Source: Escherichia coli O127:H6 str. E2348/69
GTDB taxonomy: Bacteria; Pseudomonadota; Gammaproteobacteria; Enterobacterales; Enterobacteriaceae
Reading direction: 5' to 3' (one strand)
Length of the DNA stretch: 64,000 nt
Assembly (NCBI RefSeq): GCF_000026545.1
Contig: NC_011601.1
Shown: piece after piece, positions 17,901-20,900 of the stretch
Layout: each line of letters opens with the position of its first letter
Position numbering within the stretch: position 1 is the first letter of the stretch
Program-made: the position numbers

Positions 17901-20900
17901 CGATGAGAATGACTGGAGTGCCAGACGGTATCAACAATGACGCCTTCAGTATGAATCGCGTCTTTGCTATAGGTGAACTGGTTATAAAAGATAACAACAG
18001 AAATGAGGATCAGTACCAGACCGATACCGAAGAATATACGAAAGAAAACTCTACTGTCCTGGCTCATTAGCCACATCCTTGCTAAATAAAAAACGGGCGG
18101 TAATACCACCGCCCGCTTGCTGAATTAACGTCCTGCTTTCAGCTTCTGATAATACTCTTCATAAATGCTGCTGGCGGAGCCTACGTCATTTTGCCATTCA
18201 CCATTTTTAATGGTTTCAGCATCCGGGTAGAGCGTTTTATCGTTCGCCACTTCCGGACTTAACAGCTTACGCGCCGCAAGGTTTGGCGTTGGATAACCGA
18301 TAGTTTCAGCAACCTGTTTTGCCACATCCGGGCGCAGCAGGAAGTTGATCAATTTCAGCGCGCCTTCTTTGTTTTTGGCATTTGCCGGGATCGCCAGGCT
18401 GTCCATCCAGAAAATGCCGCCTTCTTTCGGCCACACCACATCAATTGGCGTACCCGCCTGGCGTGCAACGAAAGCAGAACCGTTCCAGATCATGCCGAGG
18501 TTAACTTCGCCTTCCATATACGGGTTCGCCGGGTTATCGGAGTTAAACGCCGCGACGTTTGGCATCAGCTTTTTCAGCTCGTTGTATGCAGCTTCAATCT
18601 CTTTCGGATCGGTGGTGTTACCGGAGTAGCCCAGCTTACGCAGCGCCATCTGGAACACTTCACGGGCATCGTCGGTCAGCAGCAGGCTGCCTTTGTACTC
18701 AGGTTTCCACAGATCGGCCCAGCTGGTGACAGATTTCGGATCCACCGCATCACCGTTAACGCCAATCGCCGTTGCACCCCAGATATACGGAATGGAATAG
18801 TCGTTATTCGGGTCAAACGGCTTGTTGAGCATGTCTGGATCGAGGTTGCTGAAATTGCTTAACTTCGACTTGTCGATCTTCTGGATCATCCCTTCTTTAC
18901 GCATTTTATCGACGTAATAGGTTGAAGGAACCACCAGGTCATAGGCACCGTCTTTGTACGTTTTCAGCTTCGCGTACATGGTTTCGTTCGACTCGTAAGT
19001 CGAATAGATAACCTTAATACCGGTTTCTTTGGTGAACTGTTCAAGCAGTCCTGGCGGCACGTACTCGGTCCAGTTGTAGAAATACAGCGTGTTGTTGTCA
19101 TCGGCGTGAGCGGCGCTCATGCCCAGTGCCAGAGCACCCGCCGCGAGCAGGTGGCGTGACCATTTTTTCATTTAACGTCCCCTGTGTTACCTTTCGTTTT
19201 ATCACGAGCAATAAGCTGGCTGGCAATAACCATCACCAGCGACAGCACCAGTAATATGGTTGCCAGCGCGTTAACTTCCGGCGATACGCCGACTTTGACC
19301 ATCGAATAAATTTTTAACGGCAGAATTTCATAACTCGGCCCGGTGACAAACGAAGAAACCACCACGTCGTCCATCGACAGGGTAAAGCTTAACACCCAGC
19401 CCGCCGCTACCGCTGGCATTGCCAGAGGCAGAATGATTTTTCGCAGAATGGTAAATTCGCTGGCACCGAGATCTTTCGCCGCTTCCAGCATTCGCACGTC
19501 AAAACCTTTCAGGCGCGAATACACTGTCACCACCACAAATGGCAGGCAGAAGGTGATATGCGAGAACAGCAGCGACCAGAAGCCAAGCTGAATACCCAGC
19601 AGCATAAACAGCACCAGCAGCGAAATCGCCATCACGATATCTGGTGACATCATCACCACAAACAGCATTCCGCTAACGAACGGCTTACCACGAAAGCGAT
19701 AACGGTACAGCGCAACTGCCGTCAGTGAACCGATAAGCGTAGCAAACGTCGCCGAAAACACCGCCATTGTTAGTGAATGCTGCGCTGCCTGTAACAGGCT
19801 GTCGTTGTTCATCAGCAGGCTATACCATTTGGTGGTAAAACCCTGCCAGTTGATGCCAAAGCGCGAGCTGTTAAAGGAGTTCACAATCAAAATAATGATT
19901 GGGATATACAGGTACGCGTAGATAGCGGTCATAAAACCGCCGCGAAGCAGTCGACCGATCATTCGAGTTCCACCTTCTTATTCATAAGGCGGGACACTTT
20001 CAGGATTTTGAATTTATTCAATTTTTTCCTTTCTCCAAAATCTCTCCAAAACGTTTCCCCAAAACTAGGCCACGCATTTTACAACACTTTTTTCCTGAGA
20101 TGGTGACGGATATTCCATATGGTGTTTATCAAATAACCAACTTAACCCATTCCTGACCTCGAGTATCGTTATAGCGATCGGTGGTTGCCTGGACTTTATG
20201 TCCTAGTAATGTTTTTGTATCAATACCCTGTGCACGGTACAGCCGTTCTGATAGAGAGCGTTGTTCATGAAATGTTGGCGGAGTTTTTCCTGCTGGTGGA
20301 ATTATCCCAGCCAGATCCCGTGCTTTGGCAAAGTAGTCGCTCAGGTTGTCTTTACTCATCGGCTTCGGTTGTTTCTGGTGCCGACTATGGATTAGATATG
20401 GACTTAATATTCTGTCTCGGCACCCATCAATAACTTCTTTTAACGTTATCCCAATGGCATCACAGCGTAGTGTAAGCGGTAACGCCAGACGCATTCCGGT
20501 TTTTCCCTGGGTGATATGCAAGTGTTCGTTCCACACATCTGAAAAACGCATGTGGCAAATGTCATCACGGCGCTGACCAGTAACAATCGCAAGAAGCATT
20601 GCGTTACGGATAAAGTGTTTTTCAGGCGTTGCATTGTAAATTTTTTGCCAGTCTTCCATGGTGAGCCTGGCTCTGGTTACTTTAGGGATCGGTTTACGGG
20701 TAGCCTCCGGAGGATTCCATCCAGGAGGAACTTCCCCTGCATGCTGTGCTTCTTTATAAATATCAACCCATAATCCACGATTTACTCTCGCTGTGCTGAC
20801 CATGTCTTTATCCAGCCACTCATCCAGTATTAATGCAAAGTCTCTTACTTCCAGTTCTTTCAATGGGTGGTTTCCCAGACGGGAAACCAGGTATGCAGCC

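Follow-up and report, generated by a model that had tools for sequence, protein, structure and literature searches.

How can the last two genes of a four-gene operon be transcribed when a prophage lies between them and the operon promoter? The question is raised by the spermidine/putrescine transporter operon potABCD of the enteropathogenic E. coli (EPEC) strain Escherichia coli O127:H6 str. E2348/69, in which potC and potD are separated from potA and potB by a lambda-family prophage. We analyzed a stretch of 64,000 nucleotides (nt) of this strain (NCBI RefSeq assembly GCF_000026545.1, contig NC_011601.1), referred to below as the window. Our reading, in which we place somewhat better than even confidence, is that the prophage was inserted into potB by its own integrase (Int), and that potCD are probably transcribed from the phage side, weakly and outside their normal regulation. 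Over the 45.2 kb compared, the window shows 0 mismatches to the E2348/69 record from which the RefSeq annotation below is taken. Prophage insertion at this site, with the resulting division of the operon, has been described before and is very common in E. coli.

The junctions and the integration module

The pot genes, all on the minus strand, and the prophage are arranged as follows; the transcription order is potA, potB, the prophage of 40.8 kb ending with xis and then int, potC, and potD.

62797..62825, minus strand: best sigma-70-like site 5' of potA, TTGGCG-17-TAGAAT, the presumed operon promoter (position-weight-matrix (PWM) score 12.0)
61587..62723, minus strand: potA, ATPase (open reading frame (ORF); RefSeq annotation)
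60740..61603, minus strand: potB, permease of 287 amino acids (aa) with a hybrid C-terminus (ORF, Pfam, RefSeq)
19985..60757, strand not assigned: defective lambdoid prophage of 40,773 bp (RefSeq annotation; Rfam DicF)
19168..19962, minus strand: potC, permease, intact, with its own ribosome-binding site and ATG kept (Pfam, RefSeq WP_000580316.1)
18125..19171, minus strand: potD, spermidine/putrescine substrate-binding protein, intact (Pfam SBP_bac_8, 2.6e-39; RefSeq WP_000759310.1)

All parts of a PotABCD importer are present, namely the ATPase, two BPD_transp_1 permeases and a periplasmic binding protein (Pfam, RefSeq names), and PotC (WP_000580316.1) is identical to the protein of the non-lysogen BL21. 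The potA promoter no longer heads one unbroken transcription unit, as the 40,773-bp prophage separates potB from potC.

The left and right attachment sites (attL and attR) and the empty potB-potC junction of BL21 were compared by three-way alignment. At attL, alignment with the empty site defined a core of 14 bp, CACCTTCTTATTCA on the plus strand, at 19971-19984, and the exact repeat was confirmed: the attR core, at 60758-60771, is identical at 14 of 14 bp in the three-way alignment. Read on the minus strand, the core is TGAATAAGAAGGTG. A repeated 14-mer is by itself not significant in 43 kb, and the boundaries were fixed independently by breaks in homology, using three junction searches across 5426 complete E. 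coli genomes, in which the matches to the unoccupied site were sampled. The sampled matches in which potB adjoins potC all stop at exactly 19984, and the potB matches without this phage end start at exactly 60758. The two cores are 40,787 bp apart and enclose 40,773 bp of phage DNA. The core is polymorphic between strains at 19977 / 60764 (AAG versus AAA, Lys codon): the attB of BL21 and several attL sites have AAA, and E2348/69 has AAG at both ends.

The codons that flank the core on the host and phage sides, respectively, are:

19959..19970, minus strand: native last codons of potB, GAA CTC GAA TGA, left at attL, with the stop overlapping the potC ATG
60740..60757, minus strand: phage-encoded end of potB, AGC GAA TTA GAT GAT TAA (SELDD and stop)

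PotB is the same as the BL21 protein over residues 1-279 and then ends in NKKVSELDD (287 aa), compared with NKKVELE (285 aa) in BL21. The native GAACTCGAATGA is kept at attL, along with the potC ribosome-binding site AAGGTGGA. The phage DNA outside the exact core also resembles potB, both on the P' side (GTGTCCCGCCTTATG versus GCTTCTCGTCTGCTG in the host) and on the other side (AGCGAATTAGATGAT versus the host GAACTCGAATGA). Since the phage flanks are still potB-like on both sides of the core, attP duplicates about 45 bp from the 3' end of potB in diverged form. Temperate phages usually repair their target gene by carrying a copy of its end. In the mechanism we propose, Int-mediated site-specific recombination would have occurred into the 14-bp core in the last codons of potB; because attP carries the diverged 3' end, integration gives PotB a near-native acidic tail (VSELDD for VELE), and the protein would be functionally repaired by this phage-encoded tail. 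A free-phage attP was also sought in a phage collection, with a synthetic attP built from both phage ends. The only int-side matches, ON470612 and ON470619, are prophage-derived records that still contain potC and potD, and thus no independent attP was found.

These results agree with the initial annotation of the locus, which had placed the attachment core within the last codons of potB; the 14-bp repeat and the homology breaks both fall there, and the comparison with the uninterrupted potB of BL21, which might have moved the junction, puts it at the same place. That potB takes a phage end (KKVSELDD) at attR is confirmed by translation and by the BL21 alignment, which likewise bears out that the native end (KKVELE), overlapping the potC ATG, stays at attL. 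The annotation had put potCD 40.8 kb from the potA promoter; we measured a displacement of 40,787 bp from their normal position, and the operon is physically bisected. Two points had escaped the annotation, namely that the prophage is defective and that its site is long known and very common.

The sequences that would serve integration and excision lie at both ends of the prophage:

20129..21247, minus strand: int, intact lambda-type tyrosine recombinase with an arm-binding domain (Pfam)
21216..21485, minus strand: xis, excisionase, overlapping the start of int (RefSeq WP_000003742.1)
19985..20092, strand not assigned: P' arm of attP, 108 bp (arm-type repeats and conserved blocks)
60633..60641, strand not assigned: fourth TCYCCAAAA arm-type repeat, in the P arm, 117 bp from the core
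60650..60662, strand not assigned: match to the integration host factor (IHF) consensus, AATCAATCAATTG, in the P arm, one of only 4 matches in the window

Int contains the domains Arm-DNA-bind_1 (PF09003; 3.8e-21, 75 bits) and Phage_integrase (PF00589; 1.5e-18, 68 bits), its translation shows the motifs TGQRRDD, HEQRS and LLGHK...DRY, and it is identical to the most common, widespread allele at 371 of 372 residues. The Xis match to Pfam Exc is at the cut-off (23 bits), and every lysogen inspected has the identical protein. A tyrosine recombinase, a core matching attB and an excisionase beside int, the marks of a lambda-type module, are thus all found here. Three copies of the arm-type repeat TCYCCAAAA lie in the P' arm on the int side (20032-20040, 20043-20051 and 20056-20064; 48-80 bp from the core). 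With the copy in the P arm, these are the only 4 in the whole 64 kb, and every one of these predicted Int sites is in an att arm. Other conserved features of the P' arm are the palindrome TTGAATAAATTCAA and the block TGTAAAAT.

The repeats, the TTGAWTAWWTTCAA element and the TGTAAAAT block are kept beside potC in relatives from Citrobacter and Pantoea, whose Int proteins are 44-76% identical; relatives with Int adjoining potC were found in Citrobacter sp. Cu233, C. meridianamericanus, C. pasteurii and Pantoea alvi. The P' arm block is also kept in phages bearing cargo genes between int and attL. This conservation across genera indicates that the 144 bp separating int from the core consist largely of P' arm (about 19985-20092). 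Judged from the predicted arm-type Int sites, a function in recombination would fully explain the conservation of the arm.

Transcription of potC and potD

The initial annotation had noted that int is co-oriented with potC and that no obvious terminator lies between int and attL. Both observations were borne out: the two genes are on the minus strand, and no terminator-like hairpin was found in the 166-nt spacer from the int stop to the potC ATG, of which 144 bp precede the core. The RNA fold of the spacer is no more stable than that of shuffled sequence (z = -0.08). Furthermore, C/G is at most 0.78 in any 78-nt window, and the excess of G over C makes the spacer a poor loading site for Rho. 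Without a terminator and as a poor Rho substrate, the spacer would permit read-through from int. The early-left genes ydfABC, DicF, dicB, the exonuclease gene (exo), xis and int all point toward potCD.

In the mechanism we propose, potAB keep the potA promoter and would now run into the phage P arm, whereas potCD, 166 nt downstream of the co-oriented xis-int, would no longer be driven or autoregulated via the potA promoter. Their mRNA may come from read-through of transcripts covering int, from a weak promoter in the conserved P' arm, or from both. In lambda, gal is transcribed from the induced prophage, which is known as escape synthesis; by analogy, potCD transcription would rise strongly on derepression of the early-left genes. 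Translation of potC should be unaffected. Between int and potC we also considered, and do not claim as a gene, the following ORF:

19959-20021, minus strand: hybrid ORF of 20 codons with a TTG start, MNKFKILKVSRLMNKKVELE, which runs from phage DNA to the native potB stop

A GGAG/AAGGA stretch precedes this ORF, and the frame is open in five diverged Citrobacter/Pantoea relatives. However, some E. coli lysogens have VLHLM for VSRLM, and 12 open codons are expected by chance. The ORF is probably a by-product of the similarity of attP and attB around the core, although it might, in principle, keep potC translationally coupled.

How general the arrangement is can be seen from the junction searches. 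The order potD-potC-attL-int was found in 1608 of the 5426 genomes, a narrower query with int directly beside attL gave 1395, and the phage right end as in the window was present in 917. All 10 of the lysogens that we inspected have potC and potD annotated as intact, and in 9 of them PotC is the BL21 protein. In E. coli RSHH22 (locus 2139-3954) and UTME-2 (1939-2971), int is separated from the P' arm by 0.9-1.65 kb of cargo, which comprises DUF2335, ORF6N and hypothetical genes and is in part on the opposite strand, and in C. meridianamericanus (locus 4117-5107) a strong terminator, a hairpin plus T8, directly follows int; potCD are intact in all three. Citrobacter pasteurii CIP 55.13 (locus 1-4290) and P. 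alvi (1-4350) have fixed remnants of 2.8-3.4 kb between potB and potC, which consist of a C-terminal int fragment, tail-fibre-assembly debris and a few cargo genes and are non-excisable. Full-length potC and potD persist beside both remnants, and in C. pasteurii PotB ends in the phage-type KKVSDIDS. Such remnants in other genera indicate that the potB 3' end is a target of this Int family across Enterobacterales.

Several points weigh against transcription of potCD from the phage side. We infer both the source and the level of the potCD mRNA from the DNA. In a repressed lysogen, hardly any transcription of the early-left operon and int is to be expected. A strict consensus promoter scan gave no site near potC. 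In the PWM scan, no site upstream of potC equals the candidate 5' of potA, whose score of 12.0 ranks near the top for the window. The best of the sites upstream of potC reach about 10; they are located within int, and their 19-bp spacers are atypical. The P' arm contributes a site, TTGGAG-16-TAAATT, with a score of 7.6, a value that about 85 sites on each strand of the window equal or exceed. The terminator or opposite-strand genes after int in sister phages mean that read-through from int is not a conserved or general mechanism. Finally, the ORFs of potCD might be intact only because the prophage is often gained and lost, and not because they still function.

Taken to their limit, these points would suggest that potCD are effectively silent in the repressed lysogen, and that about 30% of E. 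coli are functional PotABCD nulls until excision, relying on biosynthesis and other importers. The absence of a good promoter upstream of potC, the repression of the phage early-left operon and int that is normal in lysogens according to established lambda biology, and the sister phages in which a terminator or convergent genes block read-through are all in line with this explanation, and deletion of phi-potB, the prophage at this site in the uropathogenic E. coli (UPEC) strain CFT073, was without phenotype in zebrafish (PMC3573123), which is consistent with a dispensable transporter. However, in an RNA-seq study of CFT073, which has the same junction, potD was 2.5-fold down in a kguR mutant (PMC8716947). 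Since potD was scored as differentially expressed, its mRNA is measurable in such a lysogen. The intact potC and potD of the 10 of 10 lysogens and of the two non-excisable remnants in other genera also speak against silencing, and we consider it unlikely. A literature search of limited scope found no paper on potCD expression or spermidine uptake in a lysogen versus a cured strain. The claim of the initial annotation that potCD depend solely on transcription leaving the int end, and with it the proposal that polyamine uptake may be lowered or brought under the prophage until excision restores it, is somewhat weakened by the sister phages and by the potD mRNA of CFT073.

The same sister phages draw attention to the P' arm, because it is the sole sequence upstream of potC common to all variants, including those with cargo or a terminator. 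The 108-bp arm might hold a constitutive promoter for potCD throughout the family, possibly occluded by Int binding. The candidate has a -35-like element, TTGGAG, in an arm-type repeat, a 16-bp spacer and a -10-like element, TAAATT, ending at 20011, and the pattern TTG...16 nt...TAnnnT is kept in E. coli, Citrobacter and Pantoea. However, its match to the consensus is weak (about 7 of 12 positions), its score of 7.6 is that of many background sites, as described above, the stricter consensus scan finds none, and the conserved positions fall in arm repeats that would be conserved for recombination anyway. We therefore regard a family-wide constitutive promoter as rather improbable.

Another explanation is that a native internal promoter for potCD, or at least for potD, survives, so that the split has no functional effect. 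In RNA-seq data, the fold-changes of potD differ from those of potABC in three strains (PMC7649339), which hints at separate control of potD, and there are weak candidates within potC. The best of these scores 7.8, no better than background. Moreover, only 22 bp of native DNA are left 5' of the potC ATG, and thus any promoter for potC inside potB has been lost, and a promoter for potD alone would not restore the permease. Searches of paper supplements found no internal pot promoters in K-12. An operon unaffected by its division therefore seems highly improbable. With these alternatives weighed, weak and deregulated transcription of potCD from the phage side remains the explanation that we prefer.

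The other half of the divided operon has acquired a new downstream region, which includes the following:

60544..60573, strand not assigned: G+C-rich hairpin of 13 bp in the P arm (inverted repeat)

The hairpin lies 3' of the tail-fibre-assembly gene on the plus strand and downstream of potB on the minus strand. The P arm from 60500 to 60757 is significantly structured as minus-strand RNA (z = -3.2); it would form the new 3' untranslated region of potAB in the lysogen, and in the circularized phage its position would be 3' of int, like that of sib in lambda. That the hairpin is a sib-like retroregulator is only an idea: the position fits, but the sequence has no U-tract or sign of processing.

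Nearly a third of complete E. coli genomes carry potCD severed from the potA promoter, and these include pathogens such as EPEC E2348/69, UPEC CFT073 and many O157:H7 strains. In related bacteria, both stress resistance and virulence are influenced by polyamine import, and Salmonella potCD mutants have reportedly been studied for virulence defects. Thus, there may be a strain-to-strain physiological difference in polyamine import that is at present ignored. Carried furthest, our proposal would mean that in about 30% of E. coli PotABCD import answers to the prophage in place of its normal autoregulation, with potCD expressed only from the P' arm and int end, perhaps under occlusion by Int, and with the P-arm hairpin added to the potAB mRNA, so that spermidine uptake would be switched reversibly by the state of the prophage (repressed, induced or excised). 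We give this far-reaching version little credence and mention it as speculation.

State and cargo of the prophage

The prophage has an early region like those of Qin and Rac (DicF, dicB, ydfABC) and lacks the complete head, tail and lysis set of a functional lambdoid prophage. A deletion scar on the plus strand (52789-53237) joins a truncated S49 head-protease gene (52789-53076) to an overlapping truncated gpK/NlpC-P60 gene (53001-53237), and the genes expected between these fragments, from the capsid to the tail tip (capsid, tail tube, tape measure), are absent. Several prophage genes are pseudogenes in the RefSeq annotation. Without head and tail genes the prophage cannot make particles. The following insertion sequence (IS) elements and fragment were found in it:

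33372-34460, minus strand: IS481-family element
43265-44638, plus strand: ISEc13
44776-45234, plus strand: IS200C
59650-59958, minus strand: transposase fragment (rve_3)

These three insertions and the fragment argue for an old, domesticated element. The patchy distribution of the prophage in the genomes searched argues for the mobility of the family and is silent on this copy. Since int, xis and both cores are intact, excision is still conceivable; at identical cores it would rebuild potABCD precisely, though the phage is dead.

The remaining features of the prophage are:

24662-24713, minus strand: DicF RNA (Rfam)
31122-33117, plus strand: Septu anti-phage pair (PADLOC)
33262-33428, plus strand: sok RNA (Rfam)
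39238-39310 and 39411-39484: two phage tRNAs, annotated as Ile and Arg (RefSeq/Rfam)
40169-40358, plus strand: STnc100 (Rfam)
40384-40719, minus strand: IraM anti-adaptor according to RefSeq, 111 aa, without a Pfam or PADLOC match
44643-44766, plus strand: STnc490 (Rfam)
60269-60467, plus strand: IS009 (Rfam)

The Septu pair consists of PtuA (457 aa; PADLOC 1.9e-165), which is an AAA ATPase, and PtuB (214 aa; 1.1e-83), which is an HNH nuclease. Directly upstream of the pair is a decayed tyrosine recombinase fragment, and further off is a DUF5677 gene (29241-30083). DicF lies within the early-left operon, in the same direction as int and potCD; the sok antitoxin RNA adjoins hokD, and the IS009 match sits in the tail-fibre-assembly gene. 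In CFT073, the related iraL, which encodes an anti-adaptor that stabilises RpoS, is reported to lie on the same potB prophage island (PMC4045071). Together with the gene annotated as IraM here, this suggests that the prophage family may affect RpoS levels.

Comparison with known systems

The closest known system is the CFT073 prophage phi-CFT073-potB, also called the potB genomic island (PMC4632033, PMC4045071, PMC3573123), which has been described as inserted in potB (PMC4632033, PMC4045071). It has the same order of potD, potC, the 166-nt spacer, int, xis, exonuclease, ydfD, dicB and ydfCBA. The region potC-attL-int differs at 7 of 2101 bp (99.7% identity), and PotC and PotD are identical. 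In comparison, the E2348/69 copy is more decayed, with the head/tail deletion, IS200C, ISEc13 and the IS481-family element, and its cargo is different, including the Septu defence pair. In addition, potC or potB/potC appears in reviews and genome papers among the insertion sites of Shiga toxin (Stx) phages and other lambdoid phages in O157:H7, O113:H21 and O104:H4. The Stx and lambdoid prophages of Shiga toxin-producing E. coli (STEC) occupy the same locus, and O157 genomes carry the same attL junction; unlike the Stx phages, the E2348/69 prophage has no stx genes and is unable to form particles. As the split has already been recorded for CFT073, for the Stx phages of STEC and for O104:H4, it does not represent a new kind of element.

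The likeness to lambda includes an arm-binding Int, a xis gene overlapping int, and a P' arm with three arm-type repeats beside int. Furthermore, as in lambda, no terminator lies between int and the core, and leftward transcripts would thus run from the prophage into host DNA. Unlike in lambda, the core is inside a coding sequence and an operon rather than intergenic, the arm site TCYCCAAAA differs, and the immunity region is Qin/Rac-like.

Two other prophages resemble the present one in their effect on a host gene. Integration of Rac in ttcA swaps terminal residues of the host protein for phage-encoded ones, and excision reverts the change (PMC4632033). Rac alters the N-terminus and affects a single gene, whereas the E2348/69 prophage alters the C-terminus and splits an operon. 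In active lysogeny, as with the Listeria phage phi10403S in comK, a prophage interrupts a host transcription unit that excision would restore. In a switch of that kind, the host function is off during integration and returns on regulated, non-lytic excision. The likeness may therefore be limited to the interruption and its possible reversal: unlike comK, the interrupted potB is itself repaired by the phage, potC and potD are intact, and potD mRNA is measurable in CFT073.

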